From contig CAVVPN010000011.1 in the NCBI GenBank assembly GCA_963750165.1, positions 640,001 through 704,000 on the forward strand: DNA of 64,000 nucleotides, written 5' to 3'. The DNA comes from an uncultured Gemmataceae bacterium. Its GTDB lineage: Bacteria; Planctomycetota; Planctomycetia; Gemmatales; Gemmataceae. The number at the start of each line of letters is the position of its first letter. Position 1 is the first letter of the stretch. The translations under genes were made by a program, and so were the position numbers. The notes below the pieces were generated by a model. It saw only the letters and a list, made by a program, of their open reading frames with translations. It was not told the DNA's origin and made no database searches. Of this stretch, positions 12,604-63,358 are shown piece after piece.

Positions 12604-12681
12604 GTCCTCGAAAGGATGAAGGATGAAGAAAAGACAGAAGAAGGGTTTTCTTCATCCTTCATCCTTCATCCTTTCGAGGAC
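12604..12681. repeat. Heptamer (GGATGAA)n inverted repeat overlapping thiolase stop
   Basis: gtcctcgaaaggatgaaggatgaagaaaa ... ttttcttcatccttcatccttcatcctttcgaggac. Confidence 0.85.
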
Positions 12682-14080: not shown

Positions 14081-15880
14081 ATGCTCAACACGTCCTTGAA
14101 GGAAGCCGTGCTGCGCCTGCTGCCGCGCGTGCAGACGCCGGCACAGTATCTCGGCGGCGAACTGAACGCCGTCGTCAAGGACCATCGCGGCGTCCGCGGC
14201 AAGCTGTGCCTGGCGTTCCCCGACGCCTACACGCTCGGCATGAGCCACCACGGCTTGCAGGTTCTGTACACCATCATGAACAGCGACCCGCAGTGGGCCT
14301 GCGAACGCGCCTTCACGCCCTGGGTCGATTTCGAGGCCCTGCTGCGCCAGCACAATCTGCCGCTCTACTCGCTGGAGACGTTCACGCCGCTGCGGCAGTT
14401 CGACGTGCTCGGCTTCAGCCTGCAGTACGAAATCTGCTACACGAACCTGCTGACCATGCTGGACCTGGGCGGCGTGCCGCTGCACAGCAAGGACCGCACG
14501 CTCGCCGACCCGCTGGTGATCTGCGGCGGTCCCGGGGCGCAGAACCCCGAGGTGCTCGCGCCCTTCGTGGACCTGTTCGTCATCGGCGACGGGGAGGAAA
14601 GTCTGCCGTGGTTGATGGAAAAGTACATGACGCTCAAGGAGCACGGCGGCAAGTCGCGGGAGGACGTGATCGCGGAGCTGGTCGGCGGCACGACCTGGGC
14701 GTATGCGCCGATGTTCTACGAGCCGGAGTACCACGCCGACGGCACCCTCGCGGCGATGCACCGCACGCGCGCCGACGTGCCGCAGCAGGTCATGGCCTGC
14801 ACGATCACGCAGGACTTCGACGCCATCCCGCTGCCGACGCGGCCGGTGGTGCCGTTCGTCGAGACGCCGCACGACCGCATCGCCCTGGAGATCATGCGCG
14901 GCTGTCCGTGGCAGTGCCGTTTCTGCCAATCGACGGTCATCAAGCGGCCGTTGCGCGTGCGCAGCGTCGAAACCATCGTACAGTCGGCCCTGGAGAGCTA
15001 CCGCAACACCGGCCACAACGAAATCAGCCTGCTCAGCCTGAGCACCAGCGATTACCCGTATTTCGAGGAACTGGTGACGCGCATGCACGAGGTGTTCACG
15101 CCGCTGGGCGTCAACATTTCGCTGCCGAGCCTGCGCGTCACGGATCAGTTACGGTTGCTGCCGAAGCTGTTTGCCGGCGTGCGCAAGGCGGGGCTGACGC
15201 TGGCGCCGGAGGTGGCCCGCGACGACATGCGCGACCAGATCCGCAAGCCGATCAAGAACGAGGACCTGTACGAGGGCTGCCGCGAGGCGTTCAAGAGCGG
15301 CTGGAACAAGGTCAAGCTGTACTTCCTGTGCGGCCTGCCGGGCGAGCGCACCGCCGACCTGGACGGCATCGTGGACATGGCGGAGACGATCTCGCGCATC
15401 GGCAAGGAGGTCAAGGGCCGCTTCGTCGATGTGACGGCGTCGGTGTCGAACTTCGTGCCGAAGCCGCACACGCCGTATCAGTGGAACGGCATGCAGTCGC
15501 GTGAGTATTTCCACTGGGCCGGCCAGTATCTGCGGCAGCGCTGCAAGATTCGGGCGGTGCGGATCAAGCAGCACGACGTGGAGGTGAGCCTGCTGGAGGG
15601 CGTGCTGACGCGCGGCGACCGGCGCGTGGCCCCGGTGCTGGAGGAGGCATGGCGGCGCGGCTGCCGGCTGGACGGCTGGCGCGAGTGCTTCCAGCCGGAG
15701 GTGTGGTGGCAGACGTTCGCGGACCTGGGCGTTGACGTGCAGTGGTACTCGCACCGGGCGCGGCCGATGACCGAAGTGCTGCCGTGGGATCATGTCAACG
15801 TCAAGAAGGGGCGGCAGTATCTGGAGAAGGAGCAGACGCGCAGTTTGCACCAGCTGGAGGTCATGGCGGCGGCGACGTGA
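14081..15880 (+). CDS. B12-binding-like radical SAM protein (TIGR03960 type)
   Basis: PAQYLGGE, LAFPDAY, FSLQYE, CPWQCRFC cluster motif, FVPKPHTPYQW; GGAGG RBS. Confidence 0.92.
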   Translation: MLNTSLKEAVLRLLPRVQTPAQYLGGELNAVVKDHRGVRGKLCLAFPDAYTLGMSHHGLQVLYTIMNSDPQWACERAFTPWVDFEALLRQHNLPLYSLETFTPLRQFDVLGFSLQYEICYTNLLTMLDLGGVPLHSKDRTLADPLVICGGPGAQNPEVLAPFVDLFVIGDGEESLPWLMEKYMTLKEHGGKSREDVIAELVGGTTWAYAPMFYEPEYHADGTLAAMHRTRADVPQQVMACTITQDFDAIPLPTRPVVPFVETPHDRIALEIMRGCPWQCRFCQSTVIKRPLRVRSVETIVQSALESYRNTGHNEISLLSLSTSDYPYFEELVTRMHEVFTPLGVNISLPSLRVTDQLRLLPKLFAGVRKAGLTLAPEVARDDMRDQIRKPIKNEDLYEGCREAFKSGWNKVKLYFLCGLPGERTADLDGIVDMAETISRIGKEVKGRFVDVTASVSNFVPKPHTPYQWNGMQSREYFHWAGQYLRQRCKIRAVRIKQHDVEVSLLEGVLTRGDRRVAPVLEEAWRRGCRLDGWRECFQPEVWWQTFADLGVDVQWYSHRARPMTEVLPWDHVNVKKGRQYLEKEQTRSLHQLEVMAAAT

Positions 15881-16274
15881 CGCACAGGTCGGCCGCCCAC
15901 TGCGCACGCCGTCGGCGGAGGGCTTGCGTGAACTCCTGCACGCGCTGCCGCAATCGGGGCGGCAGGTCGGCCGCTGCCAGGAGTTGGTCGCCCAGACAGA
16001 TCGCTTCGTGAAAATTGCCCGCCTGGGCCCAGCAGCTGATCGCGCTGAAGCGGTGTAGCTGACTTTTTTCGTGCAACCCTTGGGCGGCGCACACCTCGCT
16101 CAGCTGTTCCTCCAGCGCGGCGGCCCGGGCGAACCGCTCCGCCGCGGCGTCCTCCTGCCGCTGGTCCCGGAGCAACCGCCCTTCCAGGATCAGGTTCGAT
16201 TTCAGGGTTTCGTCGGCCGCAAAGTCCGCGTCCAGCCCGTGCCGTGCGAGTCCCTTCAAGGGGCGCTGCATCAT
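15861..16274 (-). CDS. Hypothetical alpha-helical (TPR-like) protein, partner of upstream nuclease
   Basis: Ala/Leu/Arg-rich helices; ATGA overlap with the upstream ORF at 16271-16274. Confidence 0.7.
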   Translation of the reverse strand: MMQRPLKGLARHGLDADFAADETLKSNLILEGRLLRDQRQEDAAAERFARAAALEEQLSEVCAAQGLHEKSQLHRFSAISCWAQAGNFHEAICLGDQLLAAADLPPRLRQRVQEFTQALRRRRAQWAADLCVTSPPP

Positions 16275-16794
16275 GGGGTTCTCTCGTCAAAGTGAGGGAA
16301 GGAGAAGATCACGCGCCGGGTCGCAAATCCGACCACGATCACGTAGCCGTCCGCTCCGTAGGGGTTGTCCAGCAACTGCTGCACTTTCTCCCGGTGTCGG
16401 GCCTCCAGGTTGTCCGCGGTCGTGCCACTGACTTCCAGGCCGAATTCCTGCGTCTCGTCCAGGCACCAGTAATCGAAGCGGTCGCCCTCCGCCGCCACCG
16501 CGTGCAGGCGGATGCCGGCGAAGTGCCACAGGACCACGCAGGCCACCCCAGCGCGGCCCATTCCGTGAGCGGGTTGTCCTGGATGCCCAGCGGCAACCGC
16601 GGGATACTCTCCCGGTCCCAATGTAAACGGAGCGAATGCTCGCCCGCCATTTCGCGAACGTCCCGCAGTTCAACCGTCAGGAGTGTCTCAGTGTCATCCG
16701 GGGTGGATTGCAAGCGCGTCACGGCGAACGGCACAAACAGGTGCGTGGCGAGTGCGTGGAGTTCGCCGATGGTTTCGAGACGAAAGGAATCCAC
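16271..16794 (-). CDS. Putative PD-(D/E)xK-like nuclease (E..A / FDY / LEVSG), frameshifted near 16548
   Basis: Joining ORFs 16339-16794 and 16271-16621 gives TEWAALGVAC...GDRFDYW...GLEVSG. Confidence 0.6.
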
Positions 16795-16837
16795 AATACC
16801 ATCCCTTCAACCCTCCAAGGTGTCCGCGCTTCAAAGT

Positions 16838-16849
16838 CCATTATAATGG
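16838..16849. promoter_or_regulatory. Palindromic CCATTATAATGG giving a TATAAT -10 box on both strands
   Basis: Lies between divergent starts 16794(-) and 17045(+). Confidence 0.4.
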
Positions 16850-16906
16850 CGGGGGAGTTCTCCAAAGGTAAAAAGTGCGGCGACGGCAGCGGCTGACGGT
16901 TAGAGT

Positions 16907-16959
16907 AGGAGCAGACGCGCAGCTTGCACCAGCTGGAGGTCATGGCGGAGGCGACGTAG
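16907..16959 (+). repeat. Copy of the last ~53 nt of the radical SAM gene
   Basis: aggagcagacgcgcagcttgcaccagctggaggtcatggcggaggcgacgtag vs 15828-15880. Confidence 0.92.
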
Positions 16960-17044
16960 TTTGTCTCCCCTTCCCCGACCGGATCGCGGAACTGGGGCGC
17001 GGCACGCACTGGTTGCTCGGATTCCAACAACACCGGGAGGCCGT

Positions 17045-18574
17045 ATGAGGACGCAGACGCGGGCGCGATTCGGGGCGGCGGCGCTGGTGACGGTGCTGAT
17101 CGGGTTCGGCTCGGGACGGGTGTGCGGGCAGGAGCCCAGGCCGTTGCCGGCGGCGGTGACGGCCGCCTGGCAAAAGGCCGGCGCCGAGGTCGGCTGGACG
17201 AGGTCGGATAAATCCAGGGTACGACTGCTGTTTCGTCTCGGCAGGGCCGGGAAGGCTGGGGAGGTGCCGGCCTTCCGGTTCTCAGCGTGGCAGGGCGGCA
17301 TCCTCGCCAAACTGCCGCGGCCGGAGACCCCGTTTGGCTTGGACTTCGGCTCCACGAAGGTGGCGGACGCGGGGTTGAAGGAGCTGGCCGCGCTCCAGCA
17401 ACTGCAGGCGCTGAACCTTGGCTTCACGCAGGTGACGGACGCGGGGCTGAAGGAGTTGGCCGCGCTCAAGCGACTGCAGGCGCTGAACCTCGGCTTCACG
17501 CAGGTGGCGGACGCGGGGCTGAAGGAGCTGGCCGCGCTCAAGCAACTGCAGTTGCTGGGCCTCGGCGGCACGCAGGTGACGGATGCGGGTCTGAAGGAGT
17601 TGGCCGCTCTCAAGCAACTGCAAACACTGGACCTCAACGGCACGGAGGTGACGGACACGGGTCTGAAGGAGCTGGCCGCGCTCAAGCAACTCCAGTCGCT
17701 GGACCTCGGCTTAACGAAGGTGACGGACGCGGGGCTGAAGGAACTGGCCGCGCTCCAGCAGCTGCAGTCGCTGGCCCTCGGCTTAACGAAGGTGACGGAC
17801 ACGGGTCTGAAGGAACTGGCCGCGCTCAAGCAACTGCAGTCGCTGGCCCTCAACGGCACGGAGGTGACGGACACGGGTCTGAAGGAACTGGCCGCGCTCC
17901 AGCAACTGCAGGCGCTGAACCTCGGCTTCACGCAGGTGGCGGACGCGGGGCTGAAGGAGCTGGCCGCGCTCAAGCAACTGCAGTTGCTGGGCCTCGGCGG
18001 CACGCAGGTGACGGATGCGGGTCTGAAGGAACTGGCTTCGCTCAAGCAACTGCAAACACTGGTCCTCAGCAGCACGCAAGTGACGGACGCGGGGCTGAAG
18101 GAACTGGCTTCGCTCAAGCAACTGCGGTCGTTGTACCTCTACAACACCAAGGTAACGGACGCGGGTCTGAAGGAACTGGCCGCTCTCAAGCAACTGCGGT
18201 CGTTGTACCTCTACAACACCAAGGTAACGGACGCGGGGCTGAAGGAGCTGGCCGCCCTCAAGCAACTGCAGACACTGGACCTCAACGGCACGAAGGTGAC
18301 GGACGCGGGGCTGAAGGAGCTGGCCGCCCTCAAGCAACTGCGGTCGTTGTACCTCTACAACACCAAGGTAACGGACGCGGGGCTGAAGGAGCTGGCCGCG
18401 CTCAAGCAACTGCAAACACTGGTCCTCAGCAGCACGCAAGTGACGGACGCGGGGCTGAAGGAGCTGGCCGCGCTCCAGCAACTGCAATCGCTGAACCTTT
18501 TCAACACGAAGGTGACGGACGCGGGCGTAGCCCAGCTACGGAAGGCGCTGCCAAGCCTTGACATCCTCCGCTAA
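17045..18574 (+). CDS. Exported LRR protein with 16 near-identical 72-bp modules
   Basis: KQLxxLxLxxTxVTDAGLKELAAL x16; signal peptide; GGAGG RBS. Confidence 0.93.
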   Translation: MRTQTRARFGAAALVTVLIGFGSGRVCGQEPRPLPAAVTAAWQKAGAEVGWTRSDKSRVRLLFRLGRAGKAGEVPAFRFSAWQGGILAKLPRPETPFGLDFGSTKVADAGLKELAALQQLQALNLGFTQVTDAGLKELAALKRLQALNLGFTQVADAGLKELAALKQLQLLGLGGTQVTDAGLKELAALKQLQTLDLNGTEVTDTGLKELAALKQLQSLDLGLTKVTDAGLKELAALQQLQSLALGLTKVTDTGLKELAALKQLQSLALNGTEVTDTGLKELAALQQLQALNLGFTQVADAGLKELAALKQLQLLGLGGTQVTDAGLKELASLKQLQTLVLSSTQVTDAGLKELASLKQLRSLYLYNTKVTDAGLKELAALKQLRSLYLYNTKVTDAGLKELAALKQLQTLDLNGTKVTDAGLKELAALKQLRSLYLYNTKVTDAGLKELAALKQLQTLVLSSTQVTDAGLKELAALQQLQSLNLFNTKVTDAGVAQLRKALPSLDILR

Positions 18575-18638
18575 TTGGTTCGATAGCGACCGGCCAAGCG
18601 CTCCAGCGCTGTTGATGCCGCGACGGCCACGACACCTC

Positions 18639-18846
18639 CGGCTGGCGCGAGTGCTTCCAGCCGGAGGTGTGGTGGCAGACGTTCGCGGACCTGGACATTG
18701 GTGTGGAGTGGTACGCGCACCGGGCGCGGCCAATGACGGAGGTGCTGCCGTGGGACCACGTCAACGTCAAGAAGGGGCGGCAGTATCTGGAGAAGGAGCA
18801 GACGCGCAGCCTGCACCAGCTGGAGGTCATGGCGGAGGCGACGTGA
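18639..18846 (+). repeat. 208-nt copy of the radical SAM gene 3' end (15673-15880)
   Basis: Ungapped alignment ending at the same TGA; about half of the differences are synonymous. Confidence 0.95.
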
Positions 18847-18877
18847 CGCCGTGCATTCGAGAGACGGGGGAGCACAC

Positions 18878-19114
18878 ATGAATCGCTTGGTGGTGAAATC
18901 CAGAGTGAGCAGCGATGGCGTCTTGCACCTGGCGCTGCCGGTGGGTCTAGAGGCGGCGGACCAGGAGGTCCAGGTTACGGTGGAGACGGTCCCGGGTGCG
19001 CCGCTCTCCCGAGAGCAATGGCGGGCCTGGGTCCAGTCGATGGCCGGCGCCTGGCAGGGAGACTTTGAGCGACCGCCGCAGGGCGAGTACGAGGCGCGGG
19101 AGCCGCTATCGTGA
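18878..19114 (+). CDS. Putative antitoxin for downstream PIN toxin
   Basis: Small ORF (DGVLHL.LP motif) with GTGA overlap into the PIN gene. Confidence 0.75.
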   Translation: MNRLVVKSRVSSDGVLHLALPVGLEAADQEVQVTVETVPGAPLSREQWRAWVQSMAGAWQGDFERPPQGEYEAREPLS

Positions 19115-19515
19115 AATACCTTCTGGACTCGAACGCCTGGATCGGCTGGCTCCGCCAGAGCCAGCCGAATCTCGTGCGCCGCATCCAGCAGGAACAGCCA
19201 GCGGACATCGCCCTTTGTTCGGTGGTATTGGGGGAGTTGCTTTACGGTGCCCGGCACAGCGGGGCGGCACACCAGGCCAACAATTTGGCCCTGGTTGCCG
19301 CATTGCGTCAGCAGTTCGTCTCAGTCCCCTTCGACGACCGGGCTGCCGAGGAGTACGGCAAGGTTCGGGAACACCTCGCCGGACTGGGAACGCTGATCGG
19401 GCCGAATGACCTTCTGATTGCGGCGATTGTCCTGGCCAACGGCTTGACCCTGGTGACCAACAACACCAGCGAATTCAGCCGGGTGCCAGGGCTGCCGCTG
19501 GAAGATTGGCAATAA
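19111..19515 (+). CDS. vapC: VapC PIN-domain toxin
   Basis: YLLDSN, ELLYGA, IGPNDLLIAA, LVTNNTSEF. Confidence 0.93.
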   Translation: MKYLLDSNAWIGWLRQSQPNLVRRIQQEQPADIALCSVVLGELLYGARHSGAAHQANNLALVAALRQQFVSVPFDDRAAEEYGKVREHLAGLGTLIGPNDLLIAAIVLANGLTLVTNNTSEFSRVPGLPLEDWQ

Positions 19516-19618
19516 TTGCGCCGTCGCGGCTGTGGGCAGACCGATGACAACCTGGAGTGGATGCTGGATCGGGATTCCACACCCCCAGGTGCTACAGCGG
19601 CGCAAACGGTCGCTTGGG

Positions 19619-19700
19619 GTCAAGATGGGCCGACAATATCTTGCAGAAGGAGCCGACGCGCAGCTTGCACCAGCAGGAGGTCATGGCGGCGGCGACGTGA
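19619..19700 (+). repeat. Decayed copy of the radical SAM gene 3' end
   Basis: gtcaagatgggccgacaatatcttgcagaaggagccgacgcgcagcttgcaccagcaggaggtcatggcggcggcgacgtga, with a 1-nt indel. Confidence 0.85.
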
Positions 19701-19716
19701 GGACCGGGAGGTGCCG

Positions 19717-20604
19717 ATGATTCTGGGCATCGATCCCAAGGTCGATTACGCCTTCAAGCATCTGCTGGGCCGCGAGTCCACGCGCGACCTGTTGATCGAC
19801 GTGATCGACCGGGTACTGAACGCCGCGCCGGGCCACCAGATTCAAGAACTGGAACTGCTCAACCCGTTCAACCCAAAGGAGACGCTGGACGACAAGCTGT
19901 CGATCCTGGACGTCAAGGCGCGCGACCAGTCCGGCCGGCAGTTCAACGTCGAAATGCAAATGCTCGCCCACCGGCACTACGAGAAGCGCATCCTGTACTA
20001 CGCCTGCAAATTGCACCAGCAACAACTGCACGAGGGCCAGGATTACCTGGAGCTGCGGCCGACCATTTCGATCAGCTTCCTGGACCACGTGCTGTTCCCG
20101 CAGGCGCCGGACTATCACCTGCACTTTCGGCTGCAGGACGAGGCGCACCACGTCGTTCTGTCGGAAGACATCGAATTTCACCTGCTGGAATTGCCGAAAT
20201 TTACAAAGTCGGCGGCGGAGCTGACAACGGACCTGGACCGCTGGCTGTATTTACTGCGCCACGCCGCCAACGTGGACACAGACGCGGTGCCCGCGCCGCT
20301 GCAGCGGCCGCTAATTTTGCGGGCTTTGGAGGAACTGAAAGTGTTGACGCAATCTGACCTGGAGCGCGAGCGCTACGAGGCGCGGCGCAAGTGGCAGCTG
20401 GACTACAACACGGGCCTGAAGGTGGCCCGCATGGAAGGCCTCGAAGAGGGCGAACAGATCGGCCGAATTCAGCTGTGCGAGCAGTTGCTGCAACGGCCGG
20501 TGACGCCGCGCGAGCAACTGGCAGCGCTGACACTGGCGGACTTGACGCGCCTGGCGGCTGATTTACAAACCCAGGTGTTGCAGCAGCGCAACCCCACGAG
20601 TTGA
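19717..20604 (+). CDS. Rpn family recombination-promoting nuclease / PD-(D/E)xK putative transposase
   Basis: DPKVDYAFK, ILDVKARD, NVEMQ, KRILYY, ELPKF, YEAR.K; GGAGG RBS. Confidence 0.92.
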   Translation: MILGIDPKVDYAFKHLLGRESTRDLLIDVIDRVLNAAPGHQIQELELLNPFNPKETLDDKLSILDVKARDQSGRQFNVEMQMLAHRHYEKRILYYACKLHQQQLHEGQDYLELRPTISISFLDHVLFPQAPDYHLHFRLQDEAHHVVLSEDIEFHLLELPKFTKSAAELTTDLDRWLYLLRHAANVDTDAVPAPLQRPLILRALEELKVLTQSDLERERYEARRKWQLDYNTGLKVARMEGLEEGEQIGRIQLCEQLLQRPVTPREQLAALTLADLTRLAADLQTQVLQQRNPTS

Positions 20605-20649
20605 CTGCTGCCGTTGGCCGGCGATGCGCGAGAGCCACAAATTCGCCCC

Positions 20650-20918
20650 CCTCCGAGGACCTGAAAGCAGTGTCACCAAACAATCGATTGCGCGAGGGCT
20701 AGGAAGCGCGGCGCAAAGTGTTACTGGATTTCAAAGCAGAAATGGATGCCGTTCGCGCGAACGGTCGCGAAGACGGCGAACAGATCGGCAGAATCCAGTT
20801 GTGCGAGCAGTTGCTGCAACGGCCGGTGACGCCGCGCGAGCGGTTGGCGTCCCTGTCCCTGGAGGACTTGACCCGGGTGGCGGACGATTTGCAAGCCCAG
20901 GTGCTGCGGCAGCGCTAA
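20650..20918 (+). pseudogene. Duplicated Rpn C-terminal fragment (possible small ORF 20742-20918)
   Basis: GEQIGRIQLCEQLLQRPVTPRE identical to the Rpn tail; in-frame TAG upstream at the Y of YEARRK. Confidence 0.8.
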
Positions 20919-20974
20919 TGGCCTGCGGGTCAGAAGCACCCGTGCGACCGGCGAGCAGCCGGCCGCCGGCTAAG

Positions 20975-21058
20975 TGCCGGGGGCGGGACTCGAACCCGCA
21001 CGGTCTTGCGACCACAGGATCCTAAATCCTGGGTGTCTACCAGTTCCACCACCCCGGC
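20975..21058 (-). tRNA. tRNA-Leu(TAG), no encoded CCA
   Basis: gccggggtggtggaactggtagacac-caggatTTAGGatcctg anticodon arm, long variable arm, ggttcgagtccc T-arm. Confidence 0.95.
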
Positions 21059-22606: not shown

Positions 22607-22703
22607 TTCACCACAAAGACACGGAGGACACAAAGGAAAAGGCAAAGAAAGAATTGAATTGATTAATCTTTTTCCTTTGTGTCCTCCGTGTCTTTGTGGC
22701 GAA
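22607..22703. repeat. Family-1 palindrome variant between convergent genes
   Basis: ttcaccacaaagacacggaggacacaaaggaaaa ... ttttcctttgtgtcctccgtgtctttgtggcgaa. Confidence 0.85.
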
Positions 22704-24852: not shown

Positions 24853-24932
24853 GCGGATGGGTGGAGCGGAAGTCGCCAGACTTTCGTCCGGTGCTCCTCG
24901 GAAGTCTGGCGATTTCCGCTCCACCCATCCGC
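24853..24932. repeat. ~30-bp-arm inverted repeat between convergent genes (REP/terminator)
   Basis: gcggatgggtggagcggaagtcgccagactt ... aagtctggcgatttccgctccacccatccgc. Confidence 0.85.
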
Positions 24933-61914: not shown

Positions 61915-62003
61915 GGAGAGGTGGCTGAGTGGCCGATAGCACCGCTTTGCTAAAGCGGCGTGGGTGTCAAAGCCCACCGCGGGTTCGAATCCCGCCCTCT
62001 CCG
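61915..62003 (+). tRNA. tRNA-Ser(GCT), no encoded CCA
   Basis: ggagagg acceptor, ccgcttTGCTaaagcgg anticodon arm, long variable arm, ggttcgaatccc. Confidence 0.95.
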
Positions 62004-62119
62004 CTCTAACAACGACTTGCGGCGATTACTAGACACCCAGCAACAACCTGATTCTGGCTGCGGTAGGGATAGCGGTAGGGAAGGAAAACCCGGTAGGGAA
62101 ACGGGCGGTTTCTGACGAC

Positions 62120-62166
62120 GCAAAGGGGGCGCCTCTGGAGTATGGAGGCGCCCCCTTTGCTGTTTT
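62120..62166 (+). terminator. Stem-loop with T tract between tRNA-Ser and integrase
   Basis: gcaaagggggcgcctc-tggagtatg-gaggcgccccctttgc-tgtttt. Confidence 0.6.
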
Positions 62167-62197
62167 ACTTCTCCCCGGTGACAGGCCGGCGGCCACC

Positions 62198-63358
62198 TCA
62201 CGCGGGCTTCTGCCGCCGTTCCTGGCCGGCCTCCTGGGTCTGTTCAGGCGTCCTGGCGAGCAACGGCGGCAGCGTCCAGACCGTCTTGCCGATGTCCTCA
62301 AGCCCCAGGTCGTTGTACAGGTCGGCCGTCAGCTTGATGGTACTGTGCCGCATGAGCCGCTGCACCACTTCGATGGGGTGCCGCTTGCTCATCCACGTGC
62401 AGAAGGTGTACCGGAGTGAGTGGAAGTCCGCCCAGCGGCCGCGCTCGTCCTGGCGGACGATGCCGGCATTCTTGAGGTGCTCCTTGAACGTCTGGATGTG
62501 GGGGACGGTCAGGAGGGGGGCGGCCGGGGCCATAACCCGCCACCGCGGCAGCAGGGCTTGAGCGCAGTCGGGCAGCATGGGCAGCTCACCCCCCTGGCCG
62601 TTCTTCGTGATCTCCGGCCGCACGTGCCAGCGCGGCCGGTCGCCCTCCGGCGCCGCGTCTACCCGGGTCATCTGCTCCAGTTCCTTCCGGCGGAAGCCGC
62701 TGAACACCGCGACCTCGTAGCAGCGGCGGTGCTCGTCGCCGGCGGCCGCGCACAGGCGCTGGAACTCCTCCGGGGTCAGGGCGCGGCGGATGCGGCGCCG
62801 CCCTTTCTGGCCTACCTTGACCTGCTTGATGTTGGCGATCGGGTTGGACGCCAGCCACCCCTGCTGACAGCACCAGTTGAGGAACGCCTTGAGCTTTGCC
62901 TGGTGACCGTGCTGTGTCCGGGGCGCCTTGCCCGCCTCGGCCAGGTCCGCGAGGTAGCGGCTGAAGTGGTCGGCCCGGATGTCGGCCAGGCAGGTCCAGT
63001 TGCAGGCGGTGGCGATCTTGGTGAGGATGCGGCCTGCCTCGGCGACGTGCTTGCCGTCTGCGGGGCTGCCGCGGCGGACCAGTTCGCGCTGGTGCTCAAT
63101 AATCACCTCGGCAATCGGGCGGCGGGCCTCACCCTGGATCAGTCCCAGGTGTTCGCCAGTGACCTCGGCGTACAGTGGCTGCAGGCCAGCCTTCAGGCGG
63201 GCCACGTCCTCGACCAGCTTGCGGCCCAGGGTGCGGCTGGCGGCCCCGTCCTTGAAGGCGGGGATGGTTCGGGGGCGGTCGTGCTGGTCTACGAACTCGA
63301 TCCGGTATTTCTTGCGGCCGGTGGGCTTGAAGCAGCTGAACTTGTCGCCTTTCGCCAT
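62198..63358 (-). CDS. Tyrosine recombinase/integrase of a tRNA-Ser-linked island
   Basis: SGFRRKEL, TKNG, FHSLRYTF, LMRHS, LY catalytic pattern; GGAGG RBS; convergent with the tRNA 3' end. Confidence 0.92.
   Translation of the reverse strand: MAKGDKFSCFKPTGRKKYRIEFVDQHDRPRTIPAFKDGAASRTLGRKLVEDVARLKAGLQPLYAEVTGEHLGLIQGEARRPIAEVIIEHQRELVRRGSPADGKHVAEAGRILTKIATACNWTCLADIRADHFSRYLADLAEAGKAPRTQHGHQAKLKAFLNWCCQQGWLASNPIANIKQVKVGQKGRRRIRRALTPEEFQRLCAAAGDEHRRCYEVAVFSGFRRKELEQMTRVDAAPEGDRPRWHVRPEITKNGQGGELPMLPDCAQALLPRWRVMAPAAPLLTVPHIQTFKEHLKNAGIVRQDERGRWADFHSLRYTFCTWMSKRHPIEVVQRLMRHSTIKLTADLYNDLGLEDIGKTVWTLPPLLARTPEQTQEAGQERRQKPA

Follow-up and report, generated by a model that had tools for sequence, protein, structure and literature searches.

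Addition of foreign DNA at the end of a resident gene has been described, as far as the available text of the sources cited here goes, in several systems. At rhs loci, C-terminal displacement stacks new units additively and leaves variable-length direct repeats of the upstream gene, with no integrase (PMC2935791, Jackson et al. 2009). Displacement of effector-immunity modules of the Vibrio cholerae type VI secretion system (T6SS) is likewise homology-anchored and integrase-free and pushes older modules back, a process that its own authors compared with integrons (PMC5361080). In E. coli, crossover with re-circularised DNA can leave foreign DNA flanked by a duplicated gene end, with no integrase involved (PMC3240628). 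Mobile endonuclease open reading frames (ORFs) of fungal mitochondria form a series of gene end, inserted ORF and duplicate C-terminus from another lineage (PMC3630166), and accretion of cis-mobilisable and integrative and mobilisable elements (CIMEs and IMEs), like that of tRNA-targeted islands, leaves a restored gene and a displaced 3′ fragment per unit, 3′ fragments being far more common than 5′ fragments (PMC5704250, PMC4383910). The array analysed here has likenesses to each of these. It lies in a 64,000-nucleotide window (G000:C11:640001-704000) of the genome of an uncultured Gemmataceae bacterium (G000; 9.6 Mb in 12 contigs, with a gene content consistent with a planctomycete), behind a gene for a B12-binding radical SAM protein, the ‘host gene’. 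The array is a stack of three packets of small genes, and what closes each packet is a once-functional allele of the last 18-69 codons of the host gene.

The array works in the manner of rhs and T6SS displacement, but on the features tested it is not an integron, a CIME, an rhs array or a homing ORF. In rhs arrays the repeated part is an internal core that bears a new toxin tip, whereas here the true end of an ordinary enzyme gene is repeated, the protein is unchanged, the cargo consists of separate unrelated genes and many host genes are used. The V. cholerae modules, unlike the array, occur only at toxin loci and mostly lose the old effector by deletion; the E. coli case is a laboratory plasmid construct, for which the available text describes no natural, serial use across species. 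Fungal ORFs need a LAGLIDADG or GIY-YIG endonuclease in each unit, whereas one of the three packets here has a weakly predicted nuclease, and in the fungal case the native end is displaced, whereas the single case that could be polarised here (G220, below) points the other way. CIMEs, IMEs and tRNA islands, again unlike the array, have a site-specific recombinase, a fixed crossover, short repeats and larger elements. Integrons differ in that no IntI-type recombinase adjoins the array, the nearest recombinase gene of any kind (62309-62782 of the window) being ~41 kb away, and in that their cassettes are co-oriented and mostly single-gene, packet 1 here being two genes on the opposite strand. 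A literature search, which did not reach subscription papers or supplements, found no prior description of such a pattern for ordinary bacterial genes genome-wide.

A BLAST search of the host gene against the whole genome finds the gene in single copy and its 3′ end exactly three more times, always downstream in the array (Table 1), as the initial annotation of this DNA had noticed. The three matches (E 2e-16 to 8e-85; identity 89-95%) are therefore not chance. The copies have different start points (-57, -208, -81) and carry the same C-terminus and stop as the host gene (TAG at 16957-16959 in tail copy 1). An assembly artefact was ruled out, as the copies differ with a synonymous bias, the cargo is unique and other genomes show the same, though single-base frameshifts in the assembly may still be read errors; paralogues were ruled out as tail donors, the best matches being to the neighbouring gene. 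Four cargoes had been proposed. Their contents (PIN, PDDEXK_2/Rpn, LRR) are as described, but only three packets are bounded by tail copies: the two-gene unit, a leucine-rich repeat (LRR) gene and a vapBC-type pair. The Rpn gene comes after the last tail copy and no copy closes it, so it is not a bounded cassette.

The same scar is present at 15 unrelated genes, and the radical SAM locus is therefore not special in this genome. Genes were called with a hexamer model, and k-mer scans around 5,445 of them looked, up to 12 kb away, for orphan copies of the gene's own end, start or middle. Orphan 3′-end copies lie downstream of 17 genes against upstream of two; orphan 5′-end copies lie upstream of six and downstream of one, and mid-gene controls gave one and four. 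A first crude count showed no polarity; it emerged after paralogue filtering. Thirteen of the 17 hold on inspection (left out were genes 3639 and 2563, which are repetitive, 2450, ambiguous, and 5956, with a 36-nt spacer) and two from a second scan make 15; the automated scan overlooked the known cases DJ-1, gene 672 and L019. Both upstream 3′-end matches were discounted as a paralogue or low-complexity DNA, as were all seven inverted matches, which are adjacent hairpins or a convergent paralogue, none being inverted across cargo.

These 15 genes have 18 tail copies, or 19 with a second phosphomutase copy seen later. The hosts include uvrB (two copies), the phosphomutase gene, DJ-1, two 2-hydroxyacid dehydrogenases, a type III polyketide synthase, a dehydratase, a histidine kinase and two DUF1553 genes. 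Their cargo (0.1-3.4 kb, on either strand across sites) comprises toxin-antitoxin (TA) pairs, LRR, extracytoplasmic function (ECF) sigma and Kelch genes and small unknown genes; the packets have no mobility relics and most encode no DNase. Tails reach 350 nt. At 15/15 sites the target is duplicated, and insertion is not coupled to target deletion. A mirror form also occurs, in which 35 nt identical to the beginning of a rhomboid gene lie upstream of its cargo. Elsewhere in G000, a 9-kb unit with TA and other small genes (C12:290380-302596, L091) is closed on its upstream side by 54 nt copied from the beginning of a 1,043-aa gene and is possibly a 5′-type event. The idea of a dedicated locus of integron or CRISPR type, put forward in the initial annotation, is not supported by these observations: the scar recurs at 15 of 5,445 genes, its start points vary, the junctions share no motif and cargo occurs in both orientations. 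Present evidence does not point to a new dedicated machine for gene capture.

The tail copies are former working alleles of their host genes, because the differences are mostly synonymous: across 18 copies the pooled ratio of non-synonymous to synonymous change (dN/dS) is 0.25, and 81 of 129 single-change codons (63%) are synonymous, against an expected 26-32% if the copy decays neutrally and 41-49% if the gene also drifts synonymously. This bears out a suggestion made initially for the 208-nt copy, although for that copy taken singly ‘largely synonymous’ is only just true (seven of its 13 changed codons, the other six changing an amino acid; its first 56 nt are identical to the host gene). 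Third-position changes are balanced, 34 each way, and for each copy the best of the long matches is the neighbouring gene or a sister copy. No motif is common to the junction flanks, and a perfect inverted repeat of over 6 bp is found at just one of 18 junctions; the lack of a motif and the variable tail start points exclude a fixed crossover. The proposal that the packets are stacked in order of time is weakly supported. The distal copy is the most decayed, but over the shared 50 nt tail copies 1, 2 and 3 differ from the host gene at 2, 3 and 3 places, and no decay gradient is seen at uvrB or the phosphomutase gene, each of which has two copies.

In relatives, the last 51 residues of the radical SAM protein were matched in 214 of 252 family genomes, with long second copies in G000, G013 and G220 (second matches in G191 and G194, on other contigs and inside long ORFs, were not counted); a class-wide search found no further two-copy genome among 78 with a match. 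Four of 75 fetched loci have tails at this gene, and the cargo varies, as the initial annotation had led one to expect: a membrane protein and an unassigned 302-aa gene with the 116-nt tail of G013, a 607-aa ORF with the 107-nt tail of G220, and short tails in G203 (37 nt) and G100 (31 nt). The start points are again variable (-122, -113, -32 and -38). The gene next to the radical SAM gene is rarely common to relatives at family distance, so cargo order is not comparable. With the G220 locus set aside, since it was chosen because its second copy had already been seen, tails occur at 3/74 radical SAM genes against 0/~351 other genes in the same loci (p 0.005; kin not independent), or at 2/74 by the automated scan alone (p ~0.03, with the same dependence among kin). 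The radical SAM gene is thus a modest hotspot, probably as a result of sequence conservation that extends as far as the stop.

The direction of the event could be read in one relative. In G220 the gene and its copy differ at 11 codons, all synonymously (5/5 in a second relative). The copy differs from the genes of the congeners G212 and G218 at 5/31 synonymous codons and G220's own gene end at 12/31; that is 16% for the copy against 39% for the gene end, 26-45% for the gene body and 41-44% for recA/rpoB (P 0.002 against 0.42, 0.06 against 0.30). In this one case it is the copy that looks foreign and the gene that looks native, which runs opposite to simple displacement and to the initial view that an incoming allele displaces the native end.

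The scar is likely to be the trace of ordinary recombination that uses gene tails as landing sites, rather than the product of a dedicated integron-like machine, and the initial picture of serial, homology-anchored, integrase-free accretion is supported. We lean, a little beyond even chances, towards entry of the packets as tail-plus-cargo circles, through a single crossover of ordinary homologous recombination at the end of the resident gene. A packet would enter as a small DNA circle made of a gene tail and its neighbouring cargo from a related cell; the circle might arise when trimmed incoming linear DNA closes on itself or, alternatively, when a packet loops out between two existing tails. 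A single crossover in the gene end would rebuild the gene and push the spare tail and older packets downstream. Tails would end at the stop where homology between donor and recipient ends, only gene-restoring events surviving, and no dedicated enzyme would be needed; addictive TA pairs and other small modules would be what stays. The circles, the donors and a dependence on RecA are all conjectural. There are precedents: 56 of 60 E. coli recombinants had 109-950-bp gene-end duplications from a single crossover with re-circularised DNA (PMC3240628), and a circle with a single crossover has been proposed for rhs arrays (PMC2935791), again as far as the available text goes. Circle entry would account for additive insertion, variable tails that end at the stop, the lack of att motifs and the foreign copy in G220, since a circle crossover near the stop would leave one.

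Several points weigh against circle entry. Tails of 30-55 nt are short for a RecA crossover. At 13/18 junctions a complete cargo gene lies 8-147 nt (median 44) from the start of the copy, and in three loci of other genomes (L169, L178, L180) the distance is 11-21 nt; the circle model leaves unexplained why junctions hug cargo ends and how cargo first adjoins a gene end. Polarisation comes from G220 alone, the last three codons of which are ambiguous, and as G000 has no congener its array cannot be polarised. In G088, 0/633 genes in 1.2 Mb have tails (P 0.17 at the G000 rate), so the genome-wide density may not be general. Neither a circle, an empty allele nor a close strain was seen in public reads, where no run contains the strain: 11 runs contain ≤0.09 of its words, and four mapped to 14100-17300 gave relatives' fragments and no useful joint.

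Linear homology-facilitated illegitimate recombination (HFIR), in effect the initial view, was proposed for the Vibrio T6SS arrays in the available text of that report (PMC5361080). The donor would anchor in the gene, bring its own end and cargo and join inside the resident gene, leaving the native end as the copy. Very short tails, 40-100-nt spacers (G203, G100 and site 980) and the one junction at which a PIN gene is cut, at 51 aa, fit such a process, and the competence genes ComEC and DprA are present in G000, a point that speaks for circle entry as well (Ku was not found there with the query used). HFIR nevertheless normally deletes target DNA (PMC3240628, in part), whereas the events here are additive, and the G220 copy looks foreign, not native; we consider it rather unlikely. 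One-step capture of cargo with a long target duplication, by break repair or template switch and with subsequent drift, seems improbable. Some pairs are 97-100% identical (DJ-1, the rhomboid 5′ end, L178), and a local origin has been reported for Rpn tail copies (bioRxiv 10.1101/2023.05.02.539157, in its available text). Across the 5′ junction of tail copy 2 there is a perfect 14-bp inverted repeat (18632-18669; background 1 in 1,500), in which the gene's natural 7-bp hairpin is lengthened by 7 bp into the cargo side; this fold-back looks like a template switch. However, it is the only one at 18 junctions, the duplications stop at the stop codon, and a dead duplicate should gain amino-acid changes, whereas the synonymous share exceeds expectation (p ~2e-4 at 47%) and the G220 differences are without exception synonymous.

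Still less probable are relics of integrase-driven islands, with CIME-type tandem accretion and an integrase that was lost or acts from elsewhere. G000 has 36 tyrosine and four serine recombinase matches, two of the 15 sites have a recombinase ~5 kb away, and accretion at the 3′ ends of housekeeping genes is known (PMC5704250, in part). But 32 of G000's own recombinases, used as queries, found none behind the radical SAM gene in 75 relatives' downstream loci (717 kb); the crossover point is not fixed, the tails far exceed repeats of 8-60 bp, and the targets are unrelated and the packets small and free of mobility relics. Equally hard to credit is homing, in which the packet's nuclease would cut the recipient gene end and be copied in with a resistant tail, as the fungal mitochondrial ORFs set a precedent (PMC3630166, in part). 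Slot 1 does hold a nuclease-like gene, with a tetratricopeptide repeat (TPR)-like partner, and the two genes travel as a unit, occurring together in 26 of 30 GTDB loci. Direct repeats flank the pair in ten, and in five of the 30, from Planctomycetota and Armatimonadota, these are gene-end copies at other host genes: 3′ ends in L169 (18 synonymous differences from the gene, five not), L178 and L180, a 5′ end in L188, and in L163 one C-terminus present three times, with no intact host gene in the locus. The L163 stack also has an HNH-like ORF, a label taken from its motif. The other repeats were rejected, as a complex duplication (L181) and, in four loci, as paralogues or non-coding repeats. Unlike a homing enzyme, though, the pair has a new host gene at every occurrence, its nuclease fold is weakly supported and most G000 packets lack a DNase. 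PIN toxin genes of G000 lie in such packets at a like rate (4/20), so the link is to small accessory modules generally and not to the nuclease.

Most small accessory genes, such as TA pairs and lone defence genes, have no known vehicle. The pattern extends rhs-style displacement from toxin loci to ordinary enzyme genes. A displaced tail fixes both junctions to the nucleotide and preserves part of an allele from another lineage; a tail scan of one genome could thus count integrase-free additions, name the landing genes and point to donors, and circle integration against linear replacement becomes testable with strain pairs. A bolder view, which we hold to be possible though doubtful, is that conserved gene tails form a general enzyme-free attachment system. 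Circles looped out between repeats would integrate again at the same gene in other species, making TA and defence modules portable among planctomycetes and into other phyla, and the tight boundaries of the cargo would hint at a host factor, as yet unrecognised, that gives the circles their shape.

Table 1. Features of the radical SAM host gene, the array and the end of the region (window positions)
Feature	Position	Strand	Basis or remark
Host gene, B12-binding radical SAM protein (599 aa), TIGR03960	14081..15880	+	Exceeds NCBIfam cut-off (E 6.6e-196)
Packet 1, 137-aa helical TPR-like protein	15861..16274	-	Atlas leads at 0.89
Packet 1, ~175-aa conserved protein, likely PD-(D/E)XK nuclease-type fold	16271..16794	-	141 homologues, alignment, homologue model, tblastn
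Tail copy 1	16903..16959	+	Last 53-57 nt of host gene; BLAST match 16903-16957, 55 nt, 94.5%
Packet 2, 509-aa LRR protein, 72-nt repeats	17045..18574	+	Pfam/NCBIfam
Tail copy 2	18639..18846	+	208 nt, 93.3% identical to host gene end
Packet 3, probable antitoxin, 78 aa	18878..19114	+	Position only; no family match
Packet 3, VapC-type PIN-domain toxin	19111..19515	+	PF01850 E 5.7e-18
Tail copy 3	19619..19700	+	82 nt, 89.0%, one indel, most decayed
Rpn-family protein	19717..20604	+	PF12784, TIGR01784
Stand-alone copy of Rpn 3′ end	20690..20918	+	20690-20915 matches 20364-20589 at 77-78%
tRNA-Leu(TAG), convergent, ends region	20974..21058	-	

None of eight cargo proteins has a PADLOC match, and the ‘defence array’ of the initial annotation is unproven; the G+C content of the cargo (0.62-0.66, against 0.67 for the host) does not tell the two apart. 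The ~175-aa gene of packet 1 is split by a frameshift in a homopolymer run near 16546-16549, which may be an error of long reads, and neither piece in the window has a Pfam, NCBIfam or PADLOC match. The model of a homologue (pLDDT 94.8) has weak Hjc/TSEN-like structure matches, the best at E 0.012 and none at E≤0.001, and gives weak support to a PD-(D/E)XK/Hjc-like nuclease fold. This well-folded family is almost always beside a TPR-like gene across three phyla; the two are a candidate new TA or defence pair. By comparison with a paralogue at C11:1298149, the last ~8 codons of the 137-aa TPR-like gene have been replaced by the antisense of the host gene end. At that second site (C11:1298149-1299268, L092), the TPR-like gene and the 3′ part of the nuclease-like gene (83.6%) overlap the end of an unrelated 222-aa ORF. 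Another planctomycete has a second three-copy stack (L163, 3777-7198), where three C-terminus copies of 45-50 codons bracket the HNH-like ORF and the nuclease-like/TPR-like pair.

Beyond tail copy 3, the Rpn gene has a copy of its C-terminal domain right behind it, like the RpnS′ genes of E. coli (bioRxiv 10.1101/2023.05.02.539157); no difference was found from the available text of that report. A 26-nt stretch just 5′ of tail copy 3 (19584-19609) resembles both Rpn 3′ ends (77% and 81%); it may be what is left of another Rpn tail, or a chance match. An island at the tRNA-Leu gene was ruled out, no displaced tRNA fragment being found in the array. Far from the array, a tRNA-Ser gene adjoins the tyrosine recombinase gene (61915-62782), and this is probably an ordinary tRNA-targeted island. 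Near-perfect intergenic inverted repeats with 25-34-bp arms, resembling repetitive extragenic palindromic (REP) elements, lie at 12604-12681, 22607-22703 and 24853-24932, and similar hairpins overlap several gene ends in G000.

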